NCBI GenBank assembly: GCA_016708315.1
Contig: JADJGC010000008.1
Location: 31,699 to 95,698, forward strand
DNA from: a bacterium
GTDB taxonomy: Bacteria; Zixibacteria; MSB-5A5; CAIYYT01
Reading direction: 5' to 3'
DNA length: 64,000 nt
The notes under the pieces were generated by a model. It was not told where the DNA came from. It was given only the letters and a program-made list of their open reading frames with translations, and ran no database searches. Every line of letters begins with the position of its first letter. Positions within the stretch are counted from its first letter, which is position 1. Position numbers and translations under genes: made by a program. Positions 46,012 to 62,365 of the stretch are shown here, piece by piece.

Positions 46012-46470
46012 TCAGAACTGGAGGTTCGACGACAGCAGATCGGCTTCCCTCCGGTTCTGGCGGAGACGGCACACGTTGGCCCGGATTTGCTCCAACTCTT
46101 CGGGCGAGAATGGTTGCTCCGGATTTTTGGCCGATTCGACTTCGCCGCGATAGACCGCCTCGATGATCAGGAAATGGGACTGCCGGCGTTTACCGGGGTG
46201 GTAGGACCGCGGCCGGAATACTTGCGTCAGCCAATGCTGGATGAAGCCGGGGGCGCGGCCGATTTTGATCAGAATGAGTGTCATCGTCAGCGCCACGAGC
46301 CACAGGGCGATGTGCCAAATCGGGATGTTGACAGGCATGAAACTGGAGATGCCCAGCGGACCGAGAAAACCGATGACCATGATCACGAACAGGTCGAACA
46401 CCTCCAGGTAATAGAGAAAGCGGATTGGCGCATTGATCTTGCGATTGTAGGGGATGATCCGGCAGTGCAT
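46012..46470 (-). CDS. small membrane protein (2 TM), possibly a T4SS component
   Basis: Two hydrophobic helices; directly downstream of the VirB4-like gene. Confidence 0.45.
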   Translation of the reverse strand: MHCRIIPYNRKINAPIRFLYYLEVFDLFVIMVIGFLGPLGISSFMPVNIPIWHIALWLVALTMTLILIKIGRAPGFIQHWLTQVFRPRSYHPGKRRQSHFLIIEAVYRGEVESAKNPEQPFSPEELEQIRANVCRLRQNRREADLLSSNLQF

Positions 46471-46505
46471 TTGGCGGCAGCGTGATTATCGGTTCGCGAT
46501 CCGGT

Positions 46506-47756
46506 TCAAGCTTTGACTCCTTTGGGGTAACGCTTGGCGAATTCGATGAGTGCATCGGTGAGCGTCAGGCCCGAGCCCACTAGCTTTTCGAACTCGAGTT
46601 TGTCAGCCGGCCGCGTAGTGGTGGTCGCATAAAGCAGGGGCGGCATTGTCAGTTCAAGAATCAAGCGCCGCGTCCCCTGCGTGCGCCGCTGGATCATGTA
46701 GCATTGGGAGAACTGTCCGGGTTCGGTCACGAGGCGCATCGCCAGCAGATCGCCTTCGTGCCCTTGAATGTAACGGACGGTTTCCTCAGCCACGTTGGTG
46801 GATAACTTGAACAGGAAAAACGTGCTGATCGAATCGCGAATGGCCTCGCTGTTTTTCAAGCTGCCCCATTCCGTAATGCCTTGCGAGATGAACATGAGGG
46901 CGATGCCGTATTTGCGGTACGTGCGCGCGGCCTCTTCAAGGAATTTCGCGCAGATGGGTGAGGACATCAGGTTCCAGCCTTCGTCGATGAAGAAGATTTT
47001 GTCCTGGGCGGCAAACTCGCGCGTCATGGTCTGGGCGAAGCGGATCGCGACCATCATCGTCACGGGACCGACGTCGCGGTCGTCTTTGCGCCGGGTGAAG
47101 TCGAACACGGTGAAGGGATTCCTCGCCGTCACCATGCTGGTTCCGTCAAAGAGATTTCCATAGCTGCCGCCTTTGCACCAAATGCGCAGCCGGTTGCCCA
47201 GCGACTTGGCGTTGGGTGAACTCTGGTTGGCGAGAATCTTTTGTACATCGCTCAATATGACTTCCTCGCCGCGCGCCACCTTGGCCTGATACGCCTGGCG
47301 GATGCACTCGGTGAGCAGCATCCGGTCTTCCTTGGGGAGTTGGTCCTGGTCGTTTTCGATCACCATGCGCTCGACGAGCAGCGCGTTTTGAATGATCTCC
47401 TCTTCGCCGGGAATGCTGCCGGGCGGCGCATAGAGGAAGTTCATCCGGTTGCGGTCGTTGTCCAAATCCATCGTGAGATAATTGCCGCCCAGGACGTGGC
47501 AGAGCTTGTAGTAAGAGCCGCCAATGTCGATGCCGACGCAGCGCGCGCCACCAGCCATTTTCTGCAAAAGAATCAGGTTGGTCGCTACGGATTTGCCCGA
47601 ACCCGATGACCCCGCGATCATCATATTGAAGTTGTTCAGATTAGTGAAGTCATGGGGCGCAAAATTGTACATTGTGCCATGTCTCGTATGGAATAGGCAC
47701 GAAGGTGGGGCTTCGGTTCCGTCGGGCAAATACAGTGCGGGCAGCAAGGTCGCCAA
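46506..47756 (-). CDS. VirB4/TrbE/TraC-family conjugative ATPase, C-terminal ATPase part; gene split by frameshift
   Basis: MMIAGSSGSGKS Walker A, IWCKGGSYGNLFDG, FFIDEGWNLM Walker B, RKYGIALMFISQ. Confidence 0.8.
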   Translation of the reverse strand: MATLLPALYLPDGTEAPPSCLFHTRHGTMYNFAPHDFTNLNNFNMMIAGSSGSGKSVATNLILLQKMAGGARCVGIDIGGSYYKLCHVLGGNYLTMDLDNDRNRMNFLYAPPGSIPGEEEIIQNALLVERMVIENDQDQLPKEDRMLLTECIRQAYQAKVARGEEVILSDVQKILANQSSPNAKSLGNRLRIWCKGGSYGNLFDGTSMVTARNPFTVFDFTRRKDDRDVGPVTMMVAIRFAQTMTREFAAQDKIFFIDEGWNLMSSPICAKFLEEAARTYRKYGIALMFISQGITEWGSLKNSEAIRDSISTFFLFKLSTNVAEETVRYIQGHEGDLLAMRLVTEPGQFSQCYMIQRRTQGTRRLILELTMPPLLYATTTTRPADKLEFEKLVGSGLTLTDALIEFAKRYPKGVKA

Positions 47757-49047
47757 CCTGGCTCGAAGAATAGGCGTGATCGCGGTAGCGATCCTTGTCG
47801 CTCAAGTATCCCGGGGTGGTCTTGAGAAAATACGGGGCAATCGGCGTGGTCTCGTGGATCCAGGTCATGCCCTCGTTCTGCTGCCCGAATTGGCGCTGTT
47901 CCAGCACCAGATTATTGAGCGCATCCAGGTCGGCGGCCCAGAGATGAATTGAGTGTGCGGCGGTCCAAGGGCGGTCCTTGCCCGTGGCTAGTTCGTCAAT
48001 TTCCGCTTCAATCTCTTCCAACGTTCGGCGCAGCTCGGGTTGTTTCTCCACGCGGCCCAGCACCTGAAGGCGCCGATTTTTGAGCCGGCGCAGCCGCCTG
48101 CCAATGTCGCTGCTGCGCGCCTCCACGCTGAATGCGCCAGAGACAAAACCCGGCGCCAGCATCTGCGGCAGCAACATGCCAAACTGCAACTGTGTGGGCG
48201 GCTCGTGAAGAAACAAAATCCGCCGGTAAAGGCCGTCCATTTGAATCCAACCCTGCCGCGGGTTCACTTCCATCTGGCCATGGACGAAATAGGATGTGGC
48301 CGGCTTCGGTTCAATCGGAGCGTAAGGCGGCGGCCGCACGCCTTGTGAGTACGACTTCGGGTTGTACCACCAGTAAAGCGTCTCGACGATGTCTTCGGAG
48401 GGCAGGAGTCTCGACTCGATGCCAGCGGCCTTCAGGATGGCCTGAGCCTGCTGCGCCTGTTTGGAGAGCAGGTTGACGGCGGTGTTCCACTCTTCCTCCG
48501 TCAGGTTCGCAGCCTCGGCCATCGAGAGTTCAAGGCTGTCGCGCAGGAAATGGGTCACGCGACTCAACCAGTTTTCCTTGGGACTCAATTTGCGATGCCG
48601 CTTGATGCGCTCGGAGAATTCCACGATCGGCTCGACGCCGACGAAGAGGTAGCAGGCGTACCGGCGCAACTGGTTGGTGGCGACTTTCTCCTGGTAGTGC
48701 TGGCCGATGTCCTGCTTGAACTGCGCCAGCAGGGGATTGCCTTTGGGCGTCGTCGACAAGTAGTCATCCAGCAATTTGCCGTATTGATTGTGGCAGATGG
48801 TGATGAACTGGAGCCGGGTTTCTGTGTCGCCCATCACGGCCAACTGGTTGAGCATGCTGCTGAAAGCGTTGTGCAGTTCATCCGCCTGCGCGCTCGAAAC
48901 AAAGAGGGTGTCCGGATACTGCACCCGCAACCCGACCGCCAACGACATGTCCTGAGCAACGATGACGTGGTTGTCTATCCAGGCGATGGGAATTTCTTCA
49001 TCGAGACAAACCCCGGAAAGACGGTTGATCCGCTCGTAATCCAGCAT
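47650..49047 (-). CDS. VirB4/TrbE-family ATPase, N-terminal part
   Basis: 465 aa with CagE/TrbE/VirB4 N-region character; overlaps the C-terminal part by 107 nt in another frame. Confidence 0.7.
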   Translation of the reverse strand: MLDYERINRLSGVCLDEEIPIAWIDNHVIVAQDMSLAVGLRVQYPDTLFVSSAQADELHNAFSSMLNQLAVMGDTETRLQFITICHNQYGKLLDDYLSTTPKGNPLLAQFKQDIGQHYQEKVATNQLRRYACYLFVGVEPIVEFSERIKRHRKLSPKENWLSRVTHFLRDSLELSMAEAANLTEEEWNTAVNLLSKQAQQAQAILKAAGIESRLLPSEDIVETLYWWYNPKSYSQGVRPPPYAPIEPKPATSYFVHGQMEVNPRQGWIQMDGLYRRILFLHEPPTQLQFGMLLPQMLAPGFVSGAFSVEARSSDIGRRLRRLKNRRLQVLGRVEKQPELRRTLEEIEAEIDELATGKDRPWTAAHSIHLWAADLDALNNLVLEQRQFGQQNEGMTWIHETTPIAPYFLKTTPGYLSDKDRYRDHAYSSSQVGDLAARTVFARRNRSPTFVPIPYETWHNVQFCAP

Positions 49048-49424: not shown

Positions 49425-49453
49425 ACAACAAAAAAGCCCCGGCTGTCCGGGGC
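49425..49453 (-). terminator. rho-independent terminator downstream of the trbC 3' remnant
   Basis: Minus strand: gccccgg-acag-ccggggc followed by ttttttgttg. Confidence 0.5.
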
Positions 49454-49479
49454 TCTCGCAATTGCATCCTGCCGCGATC

Positions 49480-49615
49480 TCACTGAGCCGCCCATGCGAG
49501 TATGACCTCGATTATTTTTGGCACGAGAAACAGGCAAACCGCGCCACCGAGGTTCTTACCCATCGCTTCCATGTCTCCGTTTTTGAATTTGATGGCGGCG
49601 ACGCCCATAAACAAG
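49480..49615 (-). repeat. direct repeat copy 1: truncated 3' end of trbC/virB2 pilin gene (about 49 codons, upstream stop in frame)
   Basis: Translates to FAATPLFMGVAAIKFKNGDMEAMGKNLGGAVCLFLVPKIIEVILAWAAQ*, 80-95% nt identity to 62649..62787. Confidence 0.7.
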
Positions 49616-49997
49616 GGTGTTGCGGCAAATTACCTGTTTTCTGGCGAAACAGCTCATTTTCTGGATTTCAGCCGCGCACTCCGCCGACCAATATGATGTT
49701 GGGATCCGAGCTGAGAGCGCTGCGAGTCTTACCAGTCGCGAGGAAACGCCGGGCCGGATAGATGGATAGCGCGCGACGTGTAAGAGGGAAACTCCCCGAT
49801 GCGGGGTTGTTGGCCGCAGGAGGCGAGGGTCGGAATCGCCCAGCGAGGGGAGCTGTTCCGAAACCCGCCTAAACCATTCAGCAGCGGTCACTTCTCTAAA
49901 TGCTGCACTGGTAAGGAGATTATCACTTTCCGGTGATTGAATCAAGCGAACAAAGCGTGACGGACACCAACAATTTGCAACAAGAGCGAACACCTTT

Positions 49998-50033
49998 AGT
50001 GCCCGTTTTGATGCCCGTTTCAGTGCCCGTTTT
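49998..50033. repeat. 3 x 12-bp tandem repeat (agtgcccgtttt / gatgcccgtttc / agtgcccgtttt)
   Basis: Read directly in the roughly 540-bp non-coding tract between the repeat copy and the island. Confidence 0.6.
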
Positions 50034-50154
50034 CGGTTCGGCAATCTGGTCTGCCGGCTGCCCGGACAGGACGAAAATCCGAAGGGGAGAATTTTCGGGT
50101 GGAGCGGCCTGGTCCGGGTCCTGTGATAATCTGGCGGCGCGGTGGATCGAAACC

Positions 50155-52281
50155 TCAATCTGCTGCGAGCATTTTTTTGCAGTGCGGGCATTCAGGGATC
50201 CGGGCCAGAAACGGAGCTGAGGTGGGCGGTAACAAAGGCGCGCACATGTCCGCGCCGAACATGTGCACGGGGTCAAACTTCTCTGGCGTGGCAATCGCGG
50301 CCGAATCGTGTGGAATTATAAAAGCATAATCCCGGTGACAATCACCGCATTTTCGACGGCCCCATTCGGAATCACAGTCCCGGCAGGTCATCATGGCGGC
50401 GTCTTCCTGCTGGTCCACGGAAGTTGATTGGCAGCATGGACAAGATTGGAGGACCTGGAGTCGGTCGCGCACATTAACAAGGCGCTCAAAAATCCCGCTT
50501 ACAACCCTGAGGGTTGCTTCTTCTTTTTGCTCCTGTGCGTTAATCTCCTTTTTTTGAAGGTTTACAGCGGCAAGCAAACGACGGTTATCCCGAACACGGT
50601 GCTCCTCCCGCTTAAGATTTTCCCGTGCGGAATAGGTTTGTTCCAATTGGCGCTTTGCTCTGGTAGCCCGCATTTGCGCTTCTGCGATCAAGGAGTCATC
50701 GGGCGGCACGGAAAATAGAAAATCCTGTTCCACCATGTGGATGCCGTGGCGGTGTGACAATTCGTGCCACACGTCTGCCCAGCCGTTCATTGGCACGCGG
50801 ACCGGAAGACTTGGCCAATCCAGTTCAGCGATCACCCAGCGAATGATACGCGCCACCAATTCGGTGGAGTCAATTTTCAGGGGCGATACTTCCACCCAAA
50901 CCATGTTGTCCGAAAACAAGGCCGAGGACCGAAGTCGTTTGAACTTTTCCACCACTGGATCCGACCAGTCAGCGGCAGTAGCACCAGAATCATCCACGCT
51001 CACGATCAACACTGGATGGCTTTGTTTTTTCATTTCGAGGAAAGTCTGGAAGGCAACATCGACCTGTTTTTCAGATTGCGCTCGCCAGCAGGTGTATAAC
51101 CCAACGATATGCAATTGTGGTTTTCCGTGGCATTCCAAAAGAAGTGAGTAATCGTTCTGGACCAGCAGCGTCCACTGGCGGGCCAAGCTTATTCGCTTTC
51201 CGAGCGCAATGGGTTGATTCGTGTTTTCGGTCGGAATCAGTCCGAGTTGCCGGCACGCGCGGATGGTCAGCAACACCGTGAATAGATTCCAATCCGAACA
51301 CGCCCGCCTTCGATTTGCGGCGCGCTCGGCAGGGGTAGGCGGCTTAACCGAGGCCACGCGTTCCCACATGTGCCACAAATGAAAAGCCTGGCGATAGTGG
51401 GCATCACTTTGAAAGACGTTCGTTGAATGCAATGGACTCTCGACCGCGGCGAAGTGCGGCATCTGCTTGAAGAGAAACGTATCGGCCAGTGCCAGCAGGC
51501 GCGCGCGGGCGGTTTCCAGGTCATGAATGAGTTGGGCGAGACGGTCGCGGCTCGGATGGCTTGAAAAAGCCTCACCCCATAAAATGAAAAGCCGGTCTCG
51601 ACGGAAGCGCGTGCCTTGTGCTGCCTCCGAATGTTCACTTGCTTCATCCAGGGCCTGCAAGATTTGCTGTAATTTCTGGAGTCGTGGATGGAGGACGCCC
51701 AAAATCCGTTTGCGGAGAGTAGCTACGGCGCGGTTTTCATAAATGTCCCATTGGTCTCGCCTTGATTCCGCAAGAATGCGCCTGGGGCGAACCCCAAGGA
51801 AGGTCCGGGTTTGCCAATCCTCCGAGTGGGCGGCGAGCGTCGCCACGGCGCGATGGGAGACCCGTCGCGCACGCCCCACTTCCTCCCGAATTTCCTCAAT
51901 CGTCAGATGACCTCGTGGATTGTGGCTGAGCGTTTCCACATGCGGCAGCGCCTGAATCAAAGCCTGCTCATAGTCGCGCAGGTCCAAGTCTGAGGTGATC
52001 GTTGGGTCCAGCGGAACCAAGCGCGGCCAAGGTTGCAGTTTCCCACCCCAAAGCGGCTCGATCCTGGCGGCGAGATTTCGCAAGCTTTGACAAAGCGTTT
52101 CAGTTGGCTCGCTGCCGGAATCGGGGCGCTCCAAATCCCGCTCCGTTCCCGGCCAAACGTGTCCGTTCCGGACAGATTGCCAAAGCCCCAAGAACGGCAA
52201 TGACTCAGGGGTTGAGCAAGACTGTCCCGTAATCCGGTTGCGCCAGAGTGTTTCCATCAATCGATCAGGTTGCGCCCCCAT
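50155..52281 (-). CDS. McrC-like partner of the McrB-like GTPase (candidate nuclease subunit); Cys-rich C-terminus
   Basis: 708 aa, start overlaps upstream McrB-like gene (operon order mcrB-mcrC); C-terminal CPCC...CRDC...CGDC...CPHC zinc-ribbon-like cluster; PD-(D/E)xK motif not confidently identified by eye. Confidence 0.5.
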   Translation of the reverse strand: MGAQPDRLMETLWRNRITGQSCSTPESLPFLGLWQSVRNGHVWPGTERDLERPDSGSEPTETLCQSLRNLAARIEPLWGGKLQPWPRLVPLDPTITSDLDLRDYEQALIQALPHVETLSHNPRGHLTIEEIREEVGRARRVSHRAVATLAAHSEDWQTRTFLGVRPRRILAESRRDQWDIYENRAVATLRKRILGVLHPRLQKLQQILQALDEASEHSEAAQGTRFRRDRLFILWGEAFSSHPSRDRLAQLIHDLETARARLLALADTFLFKQMPHFAAVESPLHSTNVFQSDAHYRQAFHLWHMWERVASVKPPTPAERAANRRRACSDWNLFTVLLTIRACRQLGLIPTENTNQPIALGKRISLARQWTLLVQNDYSLLLECHGKPQLHIVGLYTCWRAQSEKQVDVAFQTFLEMKKQSHPVLIVSVDDSGATAADWSDPVVEKFKRLRSSALFSDNMVWVEVSPLKIDSTELVARIIRWVIAELDWPSLPVRVPMNGWADVWHELSHRHGIHMVEQDFLFSVPPDDSLIAEAQMRATRAKRQLEQTYSARENLKREEHRVRDNRRLLAAVNLQKKEINAQEQKEEATLRVVSGIFERLVNVRDRLQVLQSCPCCQSTSVDQQEDAAMMTCRDCDSEWGRRKCGDCHRDYAFIIPHDSAAIATPEKFDPVHMFGADMCAPLLPPTSAPFLARIPECPHCKKMLAAD

Positions 52282-54646
52282 TCAAGCGTTTGATTTCCCG
52301 TTCCAGCAACTCGTAACATTTTACCGGTTGGTTAGGCTTATCAAAATTATCCCATTCCTGGATCAAATGGGTTTGGAACTCTTCGAGTTGTTTCGCCCCG
52401 AGATCAAACCTGCCGCGCAGCTTGCGAAGCAATTTGGTCGCAAGGATATGATCTGTGGCTTCACCCAGAGTGCCGCCGGCTTCAATAATAACCGGCACAA
52501 ACCGATTCATCTGGCTTTCGAGCCGATTGCCCCAGCCTAAACCCAGTTTGGCGAGCTGATGAGTGAGTGACTTATCCAAAAAGTTCTTGGCTCGGATAGC
52601 GGCATCCTTATGTGTGTTTACCGCCCGATTAAAGGCTCCATCGATTGCGTCCTGTGTGATCGGGACCGGCGAGTTAAGCGGTCTGGGCACGAAGGCCTCG
52701 GGGTGTCTCGGAAACTCCATCACATGGGAGCGGTCATAGGTTTTGTCGGCGAAATCCTTGGTGGTTTCGTCATGATTGGCCGTGCCGATGAACCAGACGT
52801 TGCGCGGAATGCGCAACCAGCGGGCTTCCTCGAGCAGCTGCGGAGCACCATCAATCCTGGACGTCAGCAGACTGACACGCTGCTTCTCCGGGATTTGTTC
52901 GAGTGCCGACAGGAAATCCGCAAAGTAGTGCTCCGGATGCGATAGATTCATTTCGTCCAAGACAATGAAAAACGGAACGTTCCGGTAGTGAGGCTGTTGG
53001 GCACGATACAGAGCCTGGAGAAACTCCGACTCATAATAACGTTTCTCGAATGCGTTGTAATAGCCCAACAAGTCGTTCCGGTCGCGCCAGCCAGATTGGA
53101 CTTCGACGATAGCCGAGGTGGCGCCGATGGCCCGGGCAAATTCGCGGGGGAGGCTAGTTTTACCAGTGCCGCTGATGCCTTGGAGCAAATGAAGCCGACT
53201 GGTGGCCAGACCGGCAAGAAATGCGCGCACGTCCTTGTCCCGGTAATAAAGTTTTTTCTCGCCTATCCGATTCCGAATCTCGTCCACCAAGTCTTTGAGC
53301 GGCGGCAGTTTCTCGAGCACCCTTGCCGGGGGTGTTTGAAGAGTCGCATCGCCATCCATCTCGATAAGGCTAGGGAAAACGCATTGAGCCTTCGACTTGT
53401 CAACTAGTTCCCCAAGCTCGCGGCGCAAATCCTCGACACAGGAACGTAGGGCGCGTTCGCGGCTATCCCAAGCTGCTTTCTGGTCTCTCAAATTTTGCAT
53501 TTCAGCAACGCCGATGGATAATTTGCTCATCTGGGACTGCAACGATTGGTTATCTTGGAGCAACCGTGCCAAATCCGAATGCAGAGTCTCATTCTCGCTT
53601 TCCAAGCCGATGAGTCGGGCAATCTGATCATCTGCAGGTTTACGGGCCAGTTCCGCCACCAACTTTCCGTGCCGCTCCTGCAACGTGGTCAGTTCAGACA
53701 GCAATTCTTCCCGTGTTTTTCCGGCGGCAACGCGTTCGGTTTCCTCGTAGCGGCTAATCTGCTCGGCAAGCTGTTTGCACCGGGCCAAAGCACTCTGCAA
53801 ACGGCTTTCCCGATCGGTAACCGCTTCCCGGACTTTTTCCTCAATTCTTGAGACCCAGTTGGTCTTAAGTTCTTCCGCCTCCTGCTTGGCCCACTCGGCT
53901 TCACGCTTGGATCGAGCCACTGCCTGTTTTTCCAACTGAAGTTGCTGTCTGCCTTCCTCCACGCCGACCAACTCGCGTTCCCGAATCTGGCGAAGCTCAG
54001 TTTCATATTTCTTTATGCCATCGAGATAACTCTGATGATGCTCGGCAATCTGCTTTGCCAAGGCCTTGGCTTCTTCATCAAGTTTTGCGAGTGCCTGACG
54101 ACGTTGTTGCAAAAATCCAGACTCGGCGTCGATCTCTCGTTCCTTTAGTTTTTCCTCTGACTGGATGATGTCTCTTTCCCGACGGTCCAACCCCGATTTG
54201 CGGTCATCCAATTCGCGCTGGGTCTTGCGCTGTTCATCCTTTTGCTGGCGTAGTTCCTCCTCACGCTTCTGAACCTGTGCGTTATGTTCATGGGCTTCGG
54301 CTTCCCGATTTTTGGCTTGTGCCTCTGCGGCCTCCATGCGGCTTTGGGAACGCTCAAATAGTTGCCGAGCTTCGTGAGCCACTTTCCATAGATTTAGCGG
54401 ATCAATTTCCGACGCGACGGGGGCCAGTGGCGGCATGGGCGGATTGTTGAGATCCTCCTCGGTCAGAAGGTTGGTCGCCTGATTCGAAATTACAGTGATC
54501 TGCGCCACAACTTCCGCAGGAGTGGATGGGCCAGCGGGATTGACAGGTGATGCCGAGGTTCCGGCATTCGCCACCGCCGGCTGCATATTTTGCCGTCTGT
54601 TATTGCGATCTTTTTTGCTCATAGTTTTGAGGCTTTGTCGTTGCAA
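52265..54646 (-). CDS. McrB-like AAA+ GTPase (AAA_5) with about 450-aa N-terminal coiled-coil domain
   Basis: GISGTGKTS Walker A, FFIVLDEMNLSHPE (McrB DEMN Walker B), GTAN...DRS signature; N-terminal half is E/R/K/Q-rich heptad sequence. Confidence 0.8.
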   Translation of the reverse strand: MQRQSLKTMSKKDRNNRRQNMQPAVANAGTSASPVNPAGPSTPAEVVAQITVISNQATNLLTEEDLNNPPMPPLAPVASEIDPLNLWKVAHEARQLFERSQSRMEAAEAQAKNREAEAHEHNAQVQKREEELRQQKDEQRKTQRELDDRKSGLDRRERDIIQSEEKLKEREIDAESGFLQQRRQALAKLDEEAKALAKQIAEHHQSYLDGIKKYETELRQIRERELVGVEEGRQQLQLEKQAVARSKREAEWAKQEAEELKTNWVSRIEEKVREAVTDRESRLQSALARCKQLAEQISRYEETERVAAGKTREELLSELTTLQERHGKLVAELARKPADDQIARLIGLESENETLHSDLARLLQDNQSLQSQMSKLSIGVAEMQNLRDQKAAWDSRERALRSCVEDLRRELGELVDKSKAQCVFPSLIEMDGDATLQTPPARVLEKLPPLKDLVDEIRNRIGEKKLYYRDKDVRAFLAGLATSRLHLLQGISGTGKTSLPREFARAIGATSAIVEVQSGWRDRNDLLGYYNAFEKRYYESEFLQALYRAQQPHYRNVPFFIVLDEMNLSHPEHYFADFLSALEQIPEKQRVSLLTSRIDGAPQLLEEARWLRIPRNVWFIGTANHDETTKDFADKTYDRSHVMEFPRHPEAFVPRPLNSPVPITQDAIDGAFNRAVNTHKDAAIRAKNFLDKSLTHQLAKLGLGWGNRLESQMNRFVPVIIEAGGTLGEATDHILATKLLRKLRGRFDLGAKQLEEFQTHLIQEWDNFDKPNQPVKCYELLEREIKRLNGGAT

Positions 54647-56243
54647 GATTCAGTAGACACCCAGTTGCGTGAATAATCAGCTCCCACATCTCTTCTGCTT
54701 CCGAAATTGAAAAGCGTTTAGGCGAAGGGTTGTGCGAGTCATCATGAGATCCCGCGTTGCCTAGGTCGATTATGCGGGCAAGCTTGCGCAAGAACTCTAC
54801 ATCTTTGGACGCTGCTTTTCTGAGGGGATGGACCGGGTGCAATGATGACGCCAACAAAGTTGCAACCACTGCACTTGGCAATTTGTAAACGTTACCCACA
54901 TCCCGGCATATTCCAATTATGAGGCCTTTGTTTGGCTTTCCGCCCGACTTATCAATCTGAAAAACTCCGGGCAATGGCAGGCGTAATCCAATTGATTGAG
55001 CTATGTGGTCAACGGTTGCCCGGTCAATCGCAACGTCGCCGTTAAGAAGTGCCGGCGCATTACTCAACGATGAAACTCGAGCGATTGACTTCAGCAACGC
55101 TTCAAGCGTCCTTCGACATGATTGCATGACCGAGCCGAGGTCACTCTGAGATTCTCCTTCGGTGGCTCTCGCCAGGGATAAACTTTTGGCCGCTGCCACC
55201 AGGTGCTCAAAAACGGCGGAGGTTGCCTTAATATCGAGGGACAGTCGCGCCACGACCTCGGATTCGGCAATTTTTTGTTGCTGCTCCAACAACTCCTCCA
55301 AGGCCGGAGCATCCTTAATCTGCGCGAATCGCAAAAAATCCCGCTGGGCACCAGCCGCGCCCTCATCGTCTCTAGCTATTCGTTGCAGTTGACGCCACAT
55401 TTTCTCGTCGCACCCAAATCCGAACGGATCACAAATCTGAGGTAGAAATGCGCTCCCTTTGGGCAAGTATCCAAACGTAACCAGCCCGGCTGGCTCGGGC
55501 TGGTCGCTAATCGAAGCGATACGCGCGAGCAATTCAGGTGAATCATCGCCGGCGATTCCCATTATCTCCGATGCATCCAAGCGCATTGATTTTTTCTGTT
55601 CTTCACGACGGCGACACTGCTTTACCGCCCGCAAAATCATGGCGCTGGATGGTTGCACCGGGCTCGCCGGGGCATCGAAGGTCCAAGCAGGAACCTTGCG
55701 TAGCCCCCTTTTTGAATCCAGTGCCAAGTTCAAACGTCCCAGTCCATAGCCTATGGTGGTTTCTTGAAGCTGAAGCTGTTGGCTGAAGTGCGGCCAGAGT
55801 TCGCCGCTCCAGGGGTCTTGGAATACCCAACCGGTGATCAATGTATCTATGATCAATTCTTCTTTTTCAAGGACGTCAAGCCCCTTGGGTGTCGGGCGGA
55901 ATGATTTCTGGTCCACCCAGCCAGAACGGACCAACTCCATGCCGATATTTTCAACCAGGTGAGGATGGAGGTGAAGTTTGGTGGCGATCTCCGCGACCGA
56001 ATATGAATTGCTGCACCACAAACCGAGCACTGCTTTCTGGAGAAGGTTGATGCGTTGGTCTGATGGTGCTGGTGCCACCACCCGCCATGCGGCGCATGGC
56101 CAAACAAGATAGACACGCCCCGTGCGATCATAATCGTGGTGGGCGGCTCGGGGACCGTAATTTAAGACAAGATCCATGGTGTCAGAAAATTGCCCCATGG
56201 CTGCCCCGGCAAAGTTTTTGGAATGCATGGAGGCCGGGGACAT
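54600..56243 (-). CDS. hypothetical island protein (possible wHTH near N-terminus)
   Basis: 547-aa ORF between helicase and McrB-like genes, overlapping both. Confidence 0.5.
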   Translation of the reverse strand: MSPASMHSKNFAGAAMGQFSDTMDLVLNYGPRAAHHDYDRTGRVYLVWPCAAWRVVAPAPSDQRINLLQKAVLGLWCSNSYSVAEIATKLHLHPHLVENIGMELVRSGWVDQKSFRPTPKGLDVLEKEELIIDTLITGWVFQDPWSGELWPHFSQQLQLQETTIGYGLGRLNLALDSKRGLRKVPAWTFDAPASPVQPSSAMILRAVKQCRRREEQKKSMRLDASEIMGIAGDDSPELLARIASISDQPEPAGLVTFGYLPKGSAFLPQICDPFGFGCDEKMWRQLQRIARDDEGAAGAQRDFLRFAQIKDAPALEELLEQQQKIAESEVVARLSLDIKATSAVFEHLVAAAKSLSLARATEGESQSDLGSVMQSCRRTLEALLKSIARVSSLSNAPALLNGDVAIDRATVDHIAQSIGLRLPLPGVFQIDKSGGKPNKGLIIGICRDVGNVYKLPSAVVATLLASSLHPVHPLRKAASKDVEFLRKLARIIDLGNAGSHDDSHNPSPKRFSISEAEEMWELIIHATGCLLNLATTKPQNYEQKRSQ

Positions 56244-57336
56244 ATTGGGAAAATTCGGACGAGGCCATGGCTGAATCTCCGACCGTAATCAATAATCGCT
56301 TTTGGCGACTCATCGCGACACACAGGCGGTTTTCAAGCAATAGATGGCCGAATTTGCGGCGAACACTTTTATCATCGGCGGGTTGAATTCGGTTTGAACG
56401 AGTCAGCGAGAGGATGACAACATCGAATTCCTTGCCTTGAAAGGCATCCACGGTCCCGACGCGAAGACGTTCGCACACTTCGCGTTGAGCGTTGACTGTG
56501 CTGCGCCAGGCATCCGCAATGACCAAATCGTTATCATCCGACAGGGTTGTCAGGTCCACCCGTTGCATTGCGGTCATGATGGCCTTGACCTGCGCGGCAT
56601 AAAAAGAAATGATCCCCACGCTCAACCCGGGAGATTCTTGCAAGATGCGGCGTGTTTCGGCGGCAATCCAATCCGCCTCACAATGCCGAACCCAGCTGTG
56701 GTCGGCGTGTTCCTCTGCACCGTTGTAGATGGGCAGATTCTTCCAAACCGCAAGTTTTCCCTCGTAGCTTCCGCCCAAGCCGTGGGCAAATTGCGGGTTC
56801 AATTCGGCACCATCGGGCGATAGAAACGCCTCACCGTGGTCCTTGTAAAAGGCGTCACTTACAAAAGTGCCCAGCACCGGATGCATCCGGTATTGGGTGT
56901 CCAGCGTGACCCAGCGTTTTATACCGTCTAATTTCTCCAAATCCTTGACGTGGATGAACAGCCGTTCAAACAGGCTCTTACGGATCTGGTCGCGGGTCTC
57001 ATCACGAACAGATTGCTCAAGTTCGCGCTCCACTTCTGGCTCCAAAAGATGGGGCAGTTGCCGGTGATCACCCACCAAAATGATTCGCCGGGCGGCTCGG
57101 CTCAGGGGAATGAGCAAATCAAGGGGATTGGCCCGGGCCGCCTCATCGACAATGACATTCTCAAACTCAAGATCGTCCGAGAGCATTTCCATCATCCGGT
57201 CACTGACCGCCTGCTGACAAGTTGCCGCAAGGACCACCGTGTAATTCTCGACGGTTTTCCGCAACCCGACCGGGTCATTTCGCAGGTCCTGAATCAGTTG
57301 TTCGAGCACCATATCCGGCCCCCTCAGCCGACGCAT
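56182..57336 (-). CDS. Upf1-like SF1 helicase, C-terminal part (motifs II-VI); split from N-terminal part by frameshift
   Basis: IVDEAARANP (motif II), ILVGDHRQLP (III), VDAFQGKEFDVVILSLTRSN (V), CVAMSRQKRLLITVGD (VI). Confidence 0.75.
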   Translation of the reverse strand: MRRLRGPDMVLEQLIQDLRNDPVGLRKTVENYTVVLAATCQQAVSDRMMEMLSDDLEFENVIVDEAARANPLDLLIPLSRAARRIILVGDHRQLPHLLEPEVERELEQSVRDETRDQIRKSLFERLFIHVKDLEKLDGIKRWVTLDTQYRMHPVLGTFVSDAFYKDHGEAFLSPDGAELNPQFAHGLGGSYEGKLAVWKNLPIYNGAEEHADHSWVRHCEADWIAAETRRILQESPGLSVGIISFYAAQVKAIMTAMQRVDLTTLSDDNDLVIADAWRSTVNAQREVCERLRVGTVDAFQGKEFDVVILSLTRSNRIQPADDKSVRRKFGHLLLENRLCVAMSRQKRLLITVGDSAMASSEFSQYVPGLHAFQKLCRGSHGAIF

Positions 57337-59515
57337 TGCGAACGCACTTGTCCAAGGTGGAAATCATCTCATCAAGAACGTTGATGACTTCCGAATTGAC
57401 CAATGGGGTTCGGGAAGGCGGGGTAGATAATTGCAGGGCATCCAACAGCCGATTTTTGACCAATTCCATTGCCGGCAAGAAGTCGGGCGCAGACTCACTA
57501 TCCCAGTCTCTGGCCTTTTCCAAAAGGGCGCGGTCTTCGGCAGTGAGCCAAGAGCCTGATGATAATTGATTGAGAACCCGCCATGCCATCTTCGGCCCGT
57601 CATCGGCGAACGCCTCTTTCTGAATGCGCAGACCACGGACCACCTGGATGGCTGCCTGACACTCGTCGTCCTGACCGGCCACTCCCAGTTTGAGGCGGTC
57701 AGCCACACTGACAATCCGGTCAGACAAATCCGCTGGCAAATGCTCGCCTGCCAACGAACGTAAATCCAACAGCATGCGAGCGGCTTCGGTTTCAGTTCCA
57801 GGAGATTTGACATAGGAGGCATGTCTGATCCGAATTGTTTCCAGCAACTTTCTCAACGGCTTTTTTGGGCTGGCTGCCAAGTCCGCCTCCAAGGCTTCCG
57901 CGATCCGGTTGGTCCAAGCTATCAAGGGCAGACTTTCGGAGTTGTCTCCTCGTCGCCGGCCCACCTTCATCGCCGGAAGGCCGAAAATCTCGGTCATGGC
58001 CGCCGCATTCTCGACCGCATCATGTTGGAAGCTTGTGAGCAACACCTTTTCGAAGTCAGCGTTTTGATCTTTGGCAATTTCAGTAAGGCGCTCGATGATG
58101 GCTGATATGGTGCGGGTCTTGCCGGTGCCGGGTGGCCCTTGAATAACGGCTATATCGGGGGTGTTCAATGCAACCCTGATGGCTTCCACCTGCCGTGGGG
58201 TCGGCGCACCGGAATGAAACCGGGCTTTCGCCGCGCCGGACAACGGTTCGTGCGTCTGCACGCGGCGAACCGGCACTGGCCGGTTTTCAAGCAACAAAGC
58301 CAGTTGTGGAATTGAAGTCTTCCCGCTGGCAATGCGTGAATGCGCCTCGTTTCGGCGTGCCATTCTTTTCAAATCGCCGCGCAAGCTGACATGAATATAA
58401 CCCCGATCTGGTGGCACAACCCCATCTTGGGTATCGGGGCGCAGTCGAATGCTTTGGGTGTCGTTACCAGCCAAAGCGCCACGAAACGCCGGCCGTGATT
58501 CGCGAACCGCTATTTGAAAACTGGGCGTCTCTTCGTCGCCGGCTGGCGTGCTGGTGAGCATATCCGGGACTTCCGCTGATGCCTCCAAATCCTTGTCGGC
58601 GGTGATGCCCTGCCATAGTTGGGAGGGGGTCCATTGGCTATCGGCGGTCAACTGAAAAGACCAGCATCCATCCGGCATTCGATGACAACCATCGTAGCTC
58701 AACCAGCCAAAGCGTTTGGCCTCTTCAACGACACGCCGATGTTCCATCGCCTGGTATTCCAGCCAGACTCCCAAATAACTGCCGGCGGTGCGGACAATCT
58801 GATCGAGTTCCGTTGCCATCCCCTGCCGCATCTTGCCGGCTATGGTCTGATCAACAAATTCAAAGGCCCCTTCGGCAAGAATAACGGGGCGATATTCTTC
58901 CGGTTTGATGGCGGTCTTGGGGCGGGTTAGACGAAATGCCAACCAGCCACCTTCTTTATGCCGTTCGACATCCAGCGCGAATCGGTCACCGAGGATTCGG
59001 AAGGCTTGTTTTTGGCTATGTTGCGAGTCTGGCCGACCAATGATGATTACCCTGGCCAGTCCAGCTGGCGAATTGGGCTGGATGATTAATTTATCGGCGA
59101 GCCAAGCACAGGCGGTTTCGGTTGAGAAACGGCGTGCCTGTTGTCGTCCCATATCGGCCACCAGCTTTTCGTCCACGCCGATTTTTAGCTCAGGAATAGA
59201 AAAGCGTTCCGAGAATTCGTGAATCTGGATGGTCAAAGCGACCAACTGATTGCGGTCAGAGCGCAAACCAACCAACCAACACAACCGGGGAGCATCCTGT
59301 TCAATTGAGCGTTGCAGTTCCCTCCGACTTTTGTGGTCCCTTGCATCAACAACCAATGGTTCGGCTTGGCCCGGAAGAATAAGCGCACACAGGTCGCCAA
59401 CGCGCGTCAGCATCAACTCCCGCCCGTTGGGCGGAATCCGCTCAATTCCGACATCCACCAAGGGGACAACATCAAGCGTCAGAATCTTACCGTGTTGGAG
59501 GTTGGCGATTTCCAT
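57275..59515 (-). CDS. Upf1-like SF1 helicase, N-terminal part (large N-terminal region + Walker A)
   Basis: VIQGPPGTGKTRTISAIIERL; overlaps the C-terminal part by 62 nt in another frame at a C5 run (57319-57323). Confidence 0.75.
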   Translation of the reverse strand: MEIANLQHGKILTLDVVPLVDVGIERIPPNGRELMLTRVGDLCALILPGQAEPLVVDARDHKSRRELQRSIEQDAPRLCWLVGLRSDRNQLVALTIQIHEFSERFSIPELKIGVDEKLVADMGRQQARRFSTETACAWLADKLIIQPNSPAGLARVIIIGRPDSQHSQKQAFRILGDRFALDVERHKEGGWLAFRLTRPKTAIKPEEYRPVILAEGAFEFVDQTIAGKMRQGMATELDQIVRTAGSYLGVWLEYQAMEHRRVVEEAKRFGWLSYDGCHRMPDGCWSFQLTADSQWTPSQLWQGITADKDLEASAEVPDMLTSTPAGDEETPSFQIAVRESRPAFRGALAGNDTQSIRLRPDTQDGVVPPDRGYIHVSLRGDLKRMARRNEAHSRIASGKTSIPQLALLLENRPVPVRRVQTHEPLSGAAKARFHSGAPTPRQVEAIRVALNTPDIAVIQGPPGTGKTRTISAIIERLTEIAKDQNADFEKVLLTSFQHDAVENAAAMTEIFGLPAMKVGRRRGDNSESLPLIAWTNRIAEALEADLAASPKKPLRKLLETIRIRHASYVKSPGTETEAARMLLDLRSLAGEHLPADLSDRIVSVADRLKLGVAGQDDECQAAIQVVRGLRIQKEAFADDGPKMAWRVLNQLSSGSWLTAEDRALLEKARDWDSESAPDFLPAMELVKNRLLDALQLSTPPSRTPLVNSEVINVLDEMISTLDKCVRNASAEGAGYGARTTDSGPAK

Positions 59516-59518
59516 GTG

Positions 59519-60961
59519 TTATGGCATCGGTTTGAAAACGACCGCTCGATGGAGCCTGTCCAGTGGACCAAAGTGCAAATGCCAATGCGGGCTTTGGGAC
59601 GCTATCGGGATTGGTTTTTCGGCGGCGACACCCAGGCTATCAATCGTTTTGTCCTGACCGGTGTGCTTCACCAACAGGAACGATTCCTGAGACAGGTTGC
59701 GCACCCGAATCGAATCAGCCCGGGTGCGAGTGATTTCGACGAGCGGTTGCTCGGTCTGGTCTGATGCATCATCACTGTGAACGTGTCGGCGCAAGATTTG
59801 AACTGATTCTTTAGGTGCCAAAACGATCGTGGCCAAGGAACGACTCTGACTGGTCGAGGTTTTAACGAAGCCGCCTGGTGAAGCTCCGGTGGCAAAAGTA
59901 ATTTCAGGATCCCAAAGATAAACAACCGCCAAGCTTAACTGCGGGCGAGGCTGTCCGCACCACGGGCACTCACGCCTTTGGGGGGCGTAAAATGAAGCCT
60001 GGCAATGCGGACAAGTGATCGTCACGTCGGCCGCCTGACTGAGAGCACTGACCCATTCCCCCAAGCCGGGGCGGGCAAGGCGGTCTTTAAGCCCGTCCTC
60101 GAACATGCGCTTGAAAAGTTTTTTTACCTCCGGGGAAATTACGATGTCTCGGTCAATGCCCCGGGAGGAACGATTTTTCAAATCGGTGGTGTGTTCGATC
60201 CAAGGCATATCACCGCGAAACGCCGCCTCTTCAAGTTCCGGTTCGCCATCGTGGACCAGATTGCCCACGAACGGGTGGACGAGGGTCAGCAATTCAAAGG
60301 CAATCACAGCCAAGGCGAAAGCATCGGTCAAAGTATCCGGCCCCATGTCGCCACGAATCAATTCGGGTGCTCCATATCCAGGGGTAAAAACCCCGGAGGC
60401 GGTAGCATCGCGCTGAACATGTAAATTATCGGCATCAATCAAAAAAGCCCAGGAGTGATTTCCATCGGAGCCAAACAGAATATTCTGCGGTGAGGGATCG
60501 CCGTAAACCAAACCGCGTCCATGCAAGCGGCTGAAGACATCAAAAATGGCCACCAACTTTTGCAACCTTGCCCGCAGTCCCCCAGTGGCCACATACCACG
60601 CGGTCACACTACGACCATCTGCAGGTGGAACCATCATGGCTCGAAGTGATGACATGCCGGCGGCCAATTGCATCAGATAGCCCACATGTGGAGGTCCTAA
60701 TACAGCAATTGGTGAAGCGATGGGCAGTCCAGCCAAGTCCAACCGCTTCACCGCCTGAATGCAACGACGCAGACGCTGCCGCTCACTTTCGCTGACGGAT
60801 CGCAGGAGTTTCACGGCGAGACGGCCTTCCTTGACCTCGAAAACATCCCCTTGACCACCCTGGCCAATCAACTTTGCCAAAGTATAGCGACGGCCTTCGA
60901 GGTCCGTGACCACTTGACCACAGACGGTTGATTGGATGCGGGGTGATGGCATGGCAATCAA
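59519..60961 (-). CDS. Ser/Thr protein kinase with C-terminal zinc ribbon
   Basis: IGQGGQGDVF Gly loop, AVK lysine, LVYGDPSPQNILF catalytic loop, TPGYGAPE; CPHC...CPWC. Confidence 0.8.
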   Translation of the reverse strand: MIAMPSPRIQSTVCGQVVTDLEGRRYTLAKLIGQGGQGDVFEVKEGRLAVKLLRSVSESERQRLRRCIQAVKRLDLAGLPIASPIAVLGPPHVGYLMQLAAGMSSLRAMMVPPADGRSVTAWYVATGGLRARLQKLVAIFDVFSRLHGRGLVYGDPSPQNILFGSDGNHSWAFLIDADNLHVQRDATASGVFTPGYGAPELIRGDMGPDTLTDAFALAVIAFELLTLVHPFVGNLVHDGEPELEEAAFRGDMPWIEHTTDLKNRSSRGIDRDIVISPEVKKLFKRMFEDGLKDRLARPGLGEWVSALSQAADVTITCPHCQASFYAPQRRECPWCGQPRPQLSLAVVYLWDPEITFATGASPGGFVKTSTSQSRSLATIVLAPKESVQILRRHVHSDDASDQTEQPLVEITRTRADSIRVRNLSQESFLLVKHTGQDKTIDSLGVAAEKPIPIASQSPHWHLHFGPLDRLHRAVVFKPMP

Positions 60962-61707
60962 TGACTCAAGATGACGGCAACCGTTTTATCATCGAGATGA
61001 CCTGGCGTTGGCCATTCTCGCAAAGCCCGGCGGAGCGTCGGACCCCTTTCGATACTTGGCTTGCCAGCAATTTCGTTTCGCAACCATTTTATGAACACGT
61101 CCAATTTGTCCGGGCGCAGATCGTCAGCAATTCCGTCGGTCACGAGGACGGCGATCCATGGTTCTTTGGAAAGCGGCAGGCTAACGTGATTCCAGTCGGT
61201 CATCCGGTGGTTCACACCCAGTCCGAGGGTTTCGTTGACAAAATCCCCGGCGGGCCGAGTAGAAAGGCATTGGACCGGTTGTTTTCCCCGTTGGAAAAAG
61301 GCCATGCCGTCGCCCAGCCCCGCATATATTAATCCCGCTTTCGGATGGGCGGCAATTAGATGACAGGTGGTGGCACATTGCTGCGGCGGATGTGGCGCAA
61401 CCGAGAAACGCCATTGCGCTTCAAGCCAGCGACAAACCCATTCCGAGCCGACGTCAGTTGCCTTGGCCCACAACCGAGTGGCTCGAATGGCCGAGGCGCA
61501 TGCGGAGCGCGCTCCGAGTGCGGCAAATGGTTTTGATCCCATGCCGTCCCCGATAGAAATTGCCGCCGCTGGCCCAAACGACCGTCCCCGCCAAACATCC
61601 TCGCAGGGTTTTCCGTTCTTTTTGTGCATAGGGCCACGCACTGATGCCCCAAAAATAATTGGCGCAACAGCGAGCGTAGCACGACCATGCTTAGTAACGG
61701 ATTTCAT
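60958..61707 (-). CDS. PP2C-family Ser/Thr phosphatase
   Basis: CEDVW...SIGDGMG, AGLGDG, VLVTDGIADDL; 4-nt overlap with kinase gene. Confidence 0.8.
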   Translation of the reverse strand: MKSVTKHGRATLAVAPIIFGASVRGPMHKKNGKPCEDVWRGRSFGPAAAISIGDGMGSKPFAALGARSACASAIRATRLWAKATDVGSEWVCRWLEAQWRFSVAPHPPQQCATTCHLIAAHPKAGLIYAGLGDGMAFFQRGKQPVQCLSTRPAGDFVNETLGLGVNHRMTDWNHVSLPLSKEPWIAVLVTDGIADDLRPDKLDVFIKWLRNEIAGKPSIERGPTLRRALREWPTPGHLDDKTVAVILSH

Positions 61708-62365
61708 CTATTTCCAAGGGATCAACCGGGGCAATTTTATCAGGTGTGGCACTCCGACTGCGCACGGTAACGCTCATGGTCACCCACTTGAAAAATTTGT
61801 GAATATCGCGGGCCTGGTGGGCCTGAAACACTTTTGACTCAGGCGCATTGAGGAAACTCTGAAGCATTTGGCCATCGGCGTCCGCACCGATCGCCATGGC
61901 CATACGAGCCGCCTTGGAAGCCCGCGCTGATTCGAGCAACTGTTTCAGGGGCAACTGCCATTCGTCACTCGGCTGCCCGTCTGAAACCAGCACGAGCGTG
62001 GGACGATAAGACCGGGAAGGAACGAGTTTCTTGCCCTCCAACATGACGTGCAGTTGGGTCAGGGTTTGCCCCAACGGGGTGTTGCCCTGAGCAACCAACG
62101 GCTGCCATTTCTTTTTTGCCTCCGCCGCATTCAACAAAGGCAAATGAGCGCGGACATCGCCCCCAAAGGCAATGGCCCCGATTTGGATCATGGCGCGAAC
62201 ATCCGGCTCGGCGGCAAAGGTCGCGAGCATTTCCTCAACGGCCCGATTCAGCGCTTCAATCTTGCCGTTTTCCGCCATGCTCCCGCTGGCGTCGAGGAGA
62301 AGAAAAACAGGGAGAGGGCGGGCTTGATCGACCGTGAACTCCTTGAGTGTGATTTCGTTCTTCAT
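61691..62365 (-). CDS. vWA domain protein (TerY-like)
   Basis: MIDAS LLLDASGSM, LVLVSDGQPSD; start at MKNEITL (ATG 62365). Confidence 0.75.
   Translation of the reverse strand: MKNEITLKEFTVDQARPLPVFLLLDASGSMAENGKIEALNRAVEEMLATFAAEPDVRAMIQIGAIAFGGDVRAHLPLLNAAEAKKKWQPLVAQGNTPLGQTLTQLHVMLEGKKLVPSRSYRPTLVLVSDGQPSDEWQLPLKQLLESARASKAARMAMAIGADADGQMLQSFLNAPESKVFQAHQARDIHKFFKWVTMSVTVRSRSATPDKIAPVDPLEIDEIRY

Follow-up and report, generated by a model that had tools for sequence, protein, structure and literature searches.

We analyzed a 64,000-nt stretch of bacterial DNA (the window; positions count from its first nucleotide) in which a sequence-only reading had described a protein of 547 aa at 54600-56243, wedged between a helicase gene and an McrB-like gene, as unknown. 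The ORF belongs to a 12-kb cassette with the following features; the gene names anticipate the assignment argued below.

50155..52257, minus strand: cnuC, McrC-like subunit, about 700 aa from Met9
52265..54622, minus strand: cnuB, McrB-like GTPase, 785 aa (Pfam AAA_5; start inferred from the relative L007)
54600..56177, minus strand: cnuE, 525 aa from Met23 (start from alignment A1 and L007)
54654..55148, minus strand: C-terminal HEPN-like helical domain of CnuE, aa about 366-530
55164..55364, minus strand: helical linker of CnuE, aa 294-360, joining the wHTH module to HEPN (AF2 helices)
55374..56177, minus strand: N-terminal "elongated wHTH" module of CnuE, aa 23 to about 290
56182..59515, minus strand: cnuH, UPF1-like SF1 helicase, as ORFs 57275..59515 and 56182..57336 (AAA_11/AAA_12, MkoA, IGHMBP2-family)
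59519..60961, minus strand: Ser/Thr kinase of the TerY-P triad, with a C-terminal zinc ribbon (Pfam Pkinase, 4.4e-14)
60958..61707, minus strand: PP2C phosphatase of the TerY-P triad (Pfam PP2C_2, 2e-28)
61691..62365, minus strand: TerY-like vWA protein of the TerY-P triad (Pfam VWA, 5.6e-11; weak PADLOC match to TerY)

Read from its first ATG, the ORF runs for 547 codons on the minus strand (54600..56243). The gene is real, but its first 22 codons are spurious: the homologues in alignment A1 all begin at Met23 (MDLVLNYGP; ATG at 56177), and we therefore place the start there, which leaves 525 aa. Residue numbers of CnuE in this text count from the first codon of the 547-codon ORF. From Met23, cnuE starts 4 nt past the helicase stop codon (56184..56182), and its overlap with the McrB-like gene is most likely 23 nt, with the McrB-like ATG at 54622. 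L007, a relative with 84% identity, shows the same 4-nt gap, the same 23-nt overlap, and a 785-aa McrB-like protein. The overlaps of 62 nt with the helicase and 47 nt with the McrB-like gene, on which an argument for co-translation had been built, are artefacts that arose because the longest ORFs were taken (56182..57336 for the AAA_11/AAA_12 helicase and 52265..54646 for the AAA_5/McrB-like gene). Those figures no longer serve that argument, although the tight coupling of cnuE to its neighbors is supported.

The possibility of an over-called ORF without homologues, raised in the same reading, was ruled out. A word-indexed search recovered 49 CnuE homologues and an exhaustive search 1294 homologous clusters (50% identity, E<=1e-3), and in comparisons with its two closest relatives the dN/dS of cnuE came to 0.11 and 0.14, showing strong purifying selection.

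We then compared gene neighborhoods, the check that had been proposed for membership of cnuE in the helicase/McrB system. Across 63 genome loci from at least six phyla (Verrucomicrobiota, Myxococcota, Cyanobacteria, Proteobacteria, Planctomycetota, and Latescibacterota), the genes were colinear in the order vWA, PP2C, Ser/Thr kinase, UPF1-like helicase, cnuE, coiled-coil NxD McrB, and McrC, and an eight-gene colinear cassette was kept in L001-L008. The helicase lay upstream of cnuE in 61 of the 63 loci and the McrB-like gene downstream in 55, most of the misses being contig ends. Co-occurrence of cnuE with these two genes is thus nearly absolute, and the gene belongs to their system.

The other products of the cassette were assigned from profile matches, motifs, and models. 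CnuH matched the PADLOC profile MkoA (5.7e-68) and an NCBIfam IGHMBP2-family helicase. CnuB carries a Walker A motif (GISGTGKT), a Walker B motif (FIVLDE), and an NxD signature (TANHDE, aa 614-619), and matched the PADLOC profile PDC-M26A at 244-596 (1.4e-51); we found no mention of PDC-M26 in the literature searched. Its N-terminal region is long, charged, and helical, as expected of a coiled coil: 177 sliding 28-aa windows between aa 79 and 471 were at least 45% charged/Q with at most 4% Pro/Gly, a crude test of composition rather than the output of a coiled-coil predictor. Four parts can be told apart in CnuC: a helical region resembling DUF2357, one of alpha/beta type (aa 363-525 in the AF2 model), a long hairpin of helices, and, at the C terminus, a zinc ribbon (CPCC, CRDC, CGDC, CPHC). 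A sequence search of the PDB returned nothing significant for CnuB or CnuC. The kinase has a zinc ribbon (CPHC...CPWC) after its kinase domain, and the vWA protein likely starts at Met32 of its longest ORF, which would make it 224 aa long, the length found in L007. Upstream of the vWA gene, the small ORF 62649..63029 showed no homology to the small ORFs that occupy this position in L001, L003, and L005, and a scan for promoters and terminators gave counts not above those of shuffles. The host is a Verrucomicrobiota-like MAG, in which the cassette seems to occupy a mobile element.

CnuE itself had 0 Pfam and 0 NCBIfam matches by sequence, and comparisons with the PDB by phmmer and by profile returned only noise (E>0.4). 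The AF2 model (pLDDT 80.9) predicts three parts. The N-terminal module has a core winged helix at aa 66-132 and beta-strands at 44-58, 135-188, and 250-271, which include the near-invariant CDPFGFG motif. Pfam PF24409, a wHTH family, matched 15 of 33 relatives. A winged helix had been suspected in the N-terminal third, and the segment quoted for it (aa 82-110) does fall inside the region matched by the PF24409 wHTH and by MarR-type wHTH structures. The linker is modeled as helices 294-310, 312-334, and 342-360, with pLDDT above 90; it has been reported as a weak coiled coil (Bell et al., 2024; PMC11090510). The C-terminal domain is predicted to adopt the four-helix up-down fold of HEPN domains. 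By sequence, no HEPN family of Pfam was significant, the best being DUF4145 at 0.005 in one relative, and the C-terminal halves of nine RxxxxH relatives together with the window protein gave marginal matches to HEPN_RiboL-PSP (0.075) and DUF3644 (0.08).

These features led us to identify the gene, with a probability of about 70%, as cnuE of a Type II CoCoNuT (coiled-coil nuclease tandem), a McrBC-derived operon predicted to act in RNA-targeting defence. The assignment rests on the published description of architecture and motifs, which we set beside the window point by point. In that computational work, CnuE is a predicted helicase-tethered RNase effector made of wHTH and HEPN domains, and a Type II operon comprises a TerY-P triad with a kinase-ZnR, CnuH, CnuE, a coiled-coil NxD CnuB, and a CnuC with a CPxC zinc ribbon, with reading frames that overlap the start of cnuBC (Bell, Makarova, Wolf, and Koonin, eLife 2024; PMC11090510). 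A shortened NxD signature, with E or D as the usual next residue, marks the GTPase, and the TerY-P triad is a frequent associate of Type II and not part of its core (PMC11090510). In the window we found the NxD GTPase (TANHDE) with an N-terminal coiled coil, an upstream CnuH, a wHTH with one HEPN, the TerY-P triad, and a CnuC of reduced size that has the CPxC zinc ribbon without an Hsp70-like, HEAT, or CSD extension. One feature departed from the description: the HEPN domain lacks RxxxxH and reads GNAGSH in its place. The paper calls the typical RxxxxH motif of CnuE "conserved in most cases" (PMC11090510) and so allows for exceptions within Type II. The protein is therefore explained rather than new, CnuE having been described by computation in 2024. 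The assignment removes the word "unknown" from the island and places the whole 12-kb cassette in a described system, part of a large McrBC-derived class whose predicted target of restriction is RNA and not DNA.

Next, we examined the HEPN site. The sequence-only reading had recognized no catalytic motif by eye; the canonical RxxxxH is indeed absent, yet a degenerate HEPN motif, G495-N-A-G-S-H500, is present with glycine for the arginine, and this degeneracy makes the oversight understandable. The window protein thus fails the Rx4-6H pattern that defines HEPN RNases, with the histidine (codon 54746..54744) invariant and the arginine replaced. Its sole RxxxxH match, R408-ATVD-H413, was rejected as the HEPN motif for lack of conservation across the family. 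The family-invariant residues are E381, H472-P473, and H500 (among 183 members, E381 was conserved in 180, H472 in 181, and H500 in 179). The canonical R[DN]xxxH was found in 60 of 123 short-form representatives. At column 377, one helical turn ahead of E381, R or K occurred in 86% of the members without the motif arginine versus 17% of the others (table 69/53/10/8; phylogeny uncorrected), and when the other domain was used to build a tree, the states of columns 377 and 495 switched back and forth along it in four or more blocks. We reasoned that the HEPN site of the window protein is probably still functional, with the invariant E381, H472, and H500 kept and the arginine relocated to R377.

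Could CnuE proteins without the motif arginine instead be catalytically dead, their HEPN domain serving to bind RNA or protein, as an adaptor or sensor between CnuH and CnuBC, while the lethal or restrictive activity lies elsewhere? This would accord with the loss of the arginine from the window copy, and it is close to the specificity or sensor subunit that had been suggested earlier. In Type II the CnuC nuclease has lost its activity, and as a rule no nuclease other than HEPN can be recognized (PMC11090510), so that a dead HEPN would deprive half of the family of its effector. Moreover, H500, H472, and E381 remain 97-98% conserved among the arginine-less members, and R377 appears specifically in these members, the pattern expected of a maintained active site. 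We consider a dead HEPN improbable. The either-or arginine pattern singles out R377, E381, H472, and H500 as targets for mutation, and it warns that about half of Type II effectors will escape a motif scan for RxxxxH.

The PADLOC matches also pointed to Mokosh type I, in which MkoA combines an STK with a COG1112/UPF1-like helicase and the C terminus of MkoB is a PLD nuclease (Millman et al., 2022; 10.1101/2022.05.11.491447). The MkoA profile (1112 positions) was matched colinearly at 7-264 by the kinase, at 532-726 by the N-terminal part of the helicase, and at 749-1087 by its C-terminal part, and CnuE aa 44-272 matched the N terminus of the MkoB profile (positions 6-202 of 610). The window is not itself a Mokosh type I system: HxKxxxxD, the PLD nuclease motif, is absent from its CnuE, and kinase and helicase are separate genes in the window and in all relatives, unlike the single-protein fusion of MkoA. 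We tentatively advance a joint proposal, at somewhat less than even odds, that half of the single-HEPN CnuEs, the window copy among them, use a non-canonical site in which the catalytic arginine has shifted out of Rx4-6H into helix 1 (R377-x3-E381) and acts with the two invariant histidines H472 and H500, and that kinase-CnuH-CnuE is the Mokosh type I module with PLD swapped for HEPN.

Drawing on the literature and on sequence patterns, we propose a mechanism for the Type II CoCoNuT reading. The elongated winged-helix module would be an adaptor that docks CnuE onto the helical insertion of the UPF1-like CnuH, and the HEPN domain, probably as a homodimer, would be the effector that cuts RNA engaged by the helicase, with R377 a candidate catalytic residue. 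CnuB, a coiled-coil NxD GTPase, and CnuC, with its zinc ribbon and presumably dead nuclease, may form an McrBC-like motor or scaffold, and the vWA/PP2C/kinase TerY-P triad could provide a phospho-switch. Defence would be the presumed function of the whole.

The helicase gene of the window is not intact. Its reading frame is split by a +1 frameshift, located at a run of five G's (G5) near 57316..57325, and tblastn placed the switch of frame between about 57347 and 57315; helicases of relatives are single ORFs of 1104-1110 aa. The frameshift in cnuH may mean that the system in the window is inactive, or it may reflect an assembly error. Another ATPase gene, located 3 kb downstream, is likewise split into two overlapping ORFs. 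Both splits would suit a decaying remnant, in which the whole system is a pseudogenised relic and the ORF has no current function. However, the remaining seven genes are intact and of full length against their homologues, cnuE is under strong purifying selection relative to its relatives, and the helicase is intact in relatives of 84-86% identity. Single-base changes in homopolymers are a typical error of long-read metagenome assembly, which the change at the G5 run would fit. We regard a relic as very unlikely. That CnuE is a MarR-like DNA-binding regulator of its own operon is similarly far-fetched: MarR-family repressors are the top structural matches of the N-terminal region (the only ones by Foldseek against the PDB, all sub-threshold at E 0.07 or worse) and there are weak MarR Pfam matches (E 0.06-0.09), but the match covers only about 70-90 of 525 residues, cnuE lies mid-operon and is neither divergent nor first, the same module is fused to PLD in MkoB and to one or two HEPN domains in the CnuE family, and strictly conserved residues such as CDPFGFG, E381, H472, and H500 lie outside the recognition helix.

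Type II CoCoNuTs, our preferred identity, share with the window the slot of CnuE between CnuH and a coiled-coil NxD CnuB, its layout of elongated wHTH, helical or coiled linker, and single HEPN, the triad with its kinase-ZnR, the short zinc-ribbon CnuC, and the overlap at the start of cnuBC. Unlike the published description, the window copy and about half of the sampled short forms lack the motif arginine, and the window cnuH is frameshifted. These two points, the R377 pattern of the arginine-less members, and the Mokosh profile matches go beyond the main text of that paper, the only place in the literature searched where the names CnuE and CnuH are used. The family comes in a short form (about 520 aa, one HEPN-matching stretch) and a long form (about 750 aa, two). 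Long forms adjoin a 1413-aa CnuC with DUF2357 and CSD, the pattern of Type III-A; the window pairs the short form with its 700-aa zinc-ribbon CnuC. Type III-A CnuE (about 740-790 aa) is homologous along the whole length of the short form and has the same upstream helicase and TerY-P triad, but the window has neither the second HEPN stretch nor a CnuC of the 1400-aa type (DUF2357, CSD).

Minimal HEPN proteins and toxins (ST0689, TT1696, AF0298, SO_3166 HepT, and LsoA/RnlA) showed no significant sequence match to the window CnuE, whose HEPN is instead fused to a 290-aa adaptor, lacks the Rx4-6H arginine, and has the additional invariant residues H472-P473 and E381. Mokosh type I follows the same logic, a UPF1-like helicase and a nuclease joined via the same adaptor module, but its effector is PLD where that of the window is HEPN, and it has no counterpart of the McrBC-like pair, the vWA gene, or the PP2C gene. 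Mokosh goes unmentioned in the CoCoNuT paper (PMC11090510). Phage defence has been shown by experiment for Mokosh, whereas CoCoNuTs are known from computation, and the homology thus supplies a validated experimental relative for modeling the CnuH-CnuE pair. If our joint proposal is true, validated Mokosh systems and CoCoNuTs would share one helicase-adaptor-nuclease mechanism.

The 547-codon ATG open reading frame (ORF) at 54600..56243 on the minus strand, whose product is a Verrucomicrobiota-type MAG protein recorded at NCBI as 'hypothetical protein IPH59_08870', is a real gene, which we call cnuE. It lies between two ORFs of the same cassette:

56182..57336, minus strand: upstream neighbor, end of AAA_11 and AAA_12 helicase domains
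52265..54646, minus strand: downstream neighbor, AAA_5

A word-indexed search returned 49 homologs, mostly of 515-525 aa, and a profile run exhaustively against 1.84 billion cluster representatives returned 1294 at E ≤ 1e-3 and 565 at E ≤ 1e-30. Against its two closest relatives, the gene showed dN/dS of 0.11 and 0.14. In our alignment of CnuE homologs, all start at the position of Met23 (MDLVLNYGP); therefore, the gene spans 54600..56177 and encodes 525 aa (residue numbers below count from the first ATG of the longer ORF). The 62-nt overlap with the helicase claimed by the sequence-only reading is thus an artifact of taking the longest ORF, as the corrected start lies 4 nt past the helicase stop codon. 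Similarly, the claimed 47-nt overlap with the McrB-like gene shrinks to 23 nt, since cnuB most likely starts at ATG 54622 and encodes 785 aa. In an 84%-identical relative (L007), the geometry is exactly the same: the gap is 4 nt, the overlap 23 nt, and the downstream protein 785 aa long.

The minus-strand cassette reads, in transcriptional order, TerY-like vWA, PP2C, Ser/Thr kinase with a zinc ribbon (CPHC...CPWC), UPF1/IGHMBP2-like SF1 helicase, CnuE, McrB-like NTPase, and a ~700-aa protein ending in CPCC/CRDC/CGDC/CPHC. Gene content and order were unchanged on contigs whose CnuE homolog is only 24-30% identical, where the helicase is a single ORF of 1104-1110 aa. We scanned one genome per species, scoring neighbors by tblastn with the window proteins, and obtained 63 loci from Verrucomicrobiota, Myxococcota, Cyanobacteria, Beta- and Gammaproteobacteria, Planctomycetota, and Latescibacterota, the closest being Verrucomicrobiota of the Limisphaerales. 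A lack of homologs, or of conserved co-occurrence with helicase and McrB-like genes, had been set in advance as a point against the gene. Instead, the helicase was found upstream at 61/63 loci and the McrB-like gene downstream at 55/63; the kinase was detected at 54/63, the vWA gene at 52/63, and the last gene at 44/63. All loci were colinear, missing neighbors mostly reflecting contig ends, and the sequence-only reading had rightly sensed that the gene belongs to a system. In relatives L001/L002 (16238..17847), the cassette adjoins a phage-type integrase and an HTH_17 excisionase-like gene, and in L007/L008 it has the HsdR of a Type I restriction system on one side and a TrwC/TraI relaxase on the other (611..3769 and 19533..21560), which fits horizontal mobility and defense-island placement. 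In distant relatives, a Sigma54_activat/AAA_5 AAA+ protein and a 109-125-aa ORF precede the vWA gene (L003/L004, 1517..3166; L005/L006, 1634..3337); this pair is absent from the window and L007.

This architecture is already explained by the published computational classification of CoCoNuTs (Bell, Makarova, Wolf and Koonin, eLife 2024, PMC11090510). There, CnuH is a UPF1-like helicase bearing a helical insertion, CnuB is an NxD-clade McrB GTPase joined to a long coiled coil, and CnuC is a McrC homolog whose Type II form is reduced, with the nuclease inactivated and two or three CPxC zinc-binding motifs kept; a TerY-P triad is frequent, its kinase fused to a zinc ribbon, and the cnuBC start is often overlapped by the cnuH/cnuE frames. 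The window CnuB carries Walker A and B motifs and TANHDE (NxD, then E), and a helical region rich in charged residues and poor in proline covers its aa 79-471 (177 sliding windows). PF09823 (DUF2357) was found in a homolog 66% identical to the window CnuC, and four cysteines of the CnuC zinc ribbon are invariant. The exhaustive search separated two CnuE size classes, short (~520 aa, one matched stretch) and long (~740-790 aa, two stretches). At a long-class locus (L053), the gene after cnuE encodes a 1413-aa DUF2357+CSD protein, the Type III-A pattern, and a window-like CnuC was absent by tblastn from those of the 63 loci with a long CnuE. Since the window has both a short CnuE and this CnuC, we assign the cassette, by gene order, motifs, and size class, to Type II CoCoNuT.

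In the window, cnuH is split into ORFs 57275..59515 and 56182..57336 (minus strand). Homolog residues 1-725 lie in one frame to ~57347 and 736-1108 in another from ~57315. The switch falls on GCTGAGGGGGCCGG, a +1 frameshift at a G5 run (~57316..57325); deleting one G gives ...NASAEGPDMVLEQL..., colinear with relatives, and the helicase is intact in all relatives examined. Either the assembly is wrong at this homopolymer, or the system has truly been inactivated. The frameshift could suggest that the whole system is a pseudogenized relic; however, the neighboring genes are intact and constrained, which argues against this.

CnuE itself matched no Pfam or NCBIfam entry, and PDB sequence searches gave only noise. 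Nevertheless, aa 44-272 match positions 6-202 of 610 of the PADLOC Mokosh MkoB profile (E 3.4e-9), and 15/33 relatives match PF24409 (wHTH-PRTase associated) over a region corresponding to aa ~66-125. The segment that had been guessed to be an N-terminal winged helix falls inside this region. Together with an AlphaFold2 model built from the homolog alignment (mean pLDDT 80.9), these matches suggest a three-part protein:

aa 23 to ~290: predicted winged helix extended by beta-strands, including a near-invariant CDPFGFG
aa 294-360: predicted helical linker
aa ~366-530: predicted HEPN-like helical domain

A MarR-like regulator is unlikely, given that the gene is too large, lies mid-operon, and has an N-terminal module also fused to nucleases.

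The HEPN motif of the window CnuE, G495-N-A-G-S-H500, is non-canonical with respect to Rx4-6H. Across 183 family members, H500 (179/183), H472 (181/183, followed by Pro), and E381 (180/183) are near-invariant, while among short representatives at 50% identity the motif arginine is present in 60/123 and absent in 59/123. At column 377, one helical turn ahead of E381, Arg/Lys occurs in 86% of members lacking the motif arginine versus 17% of the others.

Motif arginine and Arg/Lys at column 377 (140 sequences)
motif arginine yes, Arg/Lys at 377 no: 69
motif arginine no, Arg/Lys at 377 yes: 53
both yes: 10
both no: 8

Window codons
55115..55113, minus strand: R377
54761..54759, minus strand: G495

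The two arginines are nearly mutually exclusive (Fisher p 1e-19, a statistic that ignores phylogeny), and on a neighbor-joining tree of the N-terminal module only, members with one state and members with the other form at least four alternating blocks. This suggests that the catalytic arginine relocated to 377, maintaining a putative active site of R377, E381, H472, and H500. The either-or pattern is absent from the main text of PMC11090510.

The CoCoNuT mechanism proposed in that paper was built on inference and AF2 multimer models. The wHTH module would dock CnuE onto the CnuH helical insertion, the helicase would feed or select RNA for the predicted HEPN nuclease, CnuBC may be a GTP-driven scaffold or motor, and TerY-P a phosphorylation switch. 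The docking model fits the general rule that nuclease-NTPase defense pairs purify as complexes (10.1101/2025.07.10.664194).

About 1 kb downstream of cnuC lies a TraG/VirB4-like P-loop ATPase (46506..49047, minus strand; P-loop_TraG 4.5e-26, AAA_10), apparently split too into overlapping ORFs 47650..49047 and 46506..47756. Some Type III-A operons are extended at their 3' end by VirB4-like ATPases (PMC11090510); here the gene may simply be part of a conjugative element. The genes of the region 4528..45996 suggest a large element that is mobile or related to secretion:

42568..45996: family-A DNA polymerase with 3'-5' exonuclease
39409..41424: DEAD/Helicase_C_2 helicase
28531..29685 and 15964..17904: T2SSE-type ATPases
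22320..24386: SMC/AAA_23-like ATPase
13683..15029: secretin
11733..13073: sigma-70 factor
4528..7914: SNF2/ResIII protein

A strong terminator-like hairpin at 49432..49457 (minus strand; 11 pairs, 7 G-C, then TTTTTTGTTG), ~700 nt past the cnuC stop, is the best candidate for the operon end; terminator-like sites overall were no commoner than in shuffles. An 804-aa ORF antisense to the polymerase gene (44071..46485, plus strand) and a 211-aa Arg/Ser-rich ORF overlapping the cnuC end (49556..50191, minus strand) look like spurious products of GC-rich sequence.

Finally, we compared the cassette with Mokosh, an experimentally validated helicase and PLD nuclease defense (10.1101/2022.05.11.491447). 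Mokosh is unmentioned in both versions of the CoCoNuT paper, so this link was apparently not drawn there. In PADLOC, the window kinase matches MkoA positions 7-264 and the helicase fragments match positions 532-726 and 749-1087 of 1112, so that the kinase with cnuH (56182..60961) and the CnuE N terminus (55374..56177) are colinear with the type I MkoA/MkoB profiles. We found no HxKxxxxD motif in CnuE, and the block carries a HEPN domain where Mokosh has PLD. From these profile matches, the kinase, CnuH, and CnuE together resemble a Mokosh module in which PLD has been replaced by HEPN.
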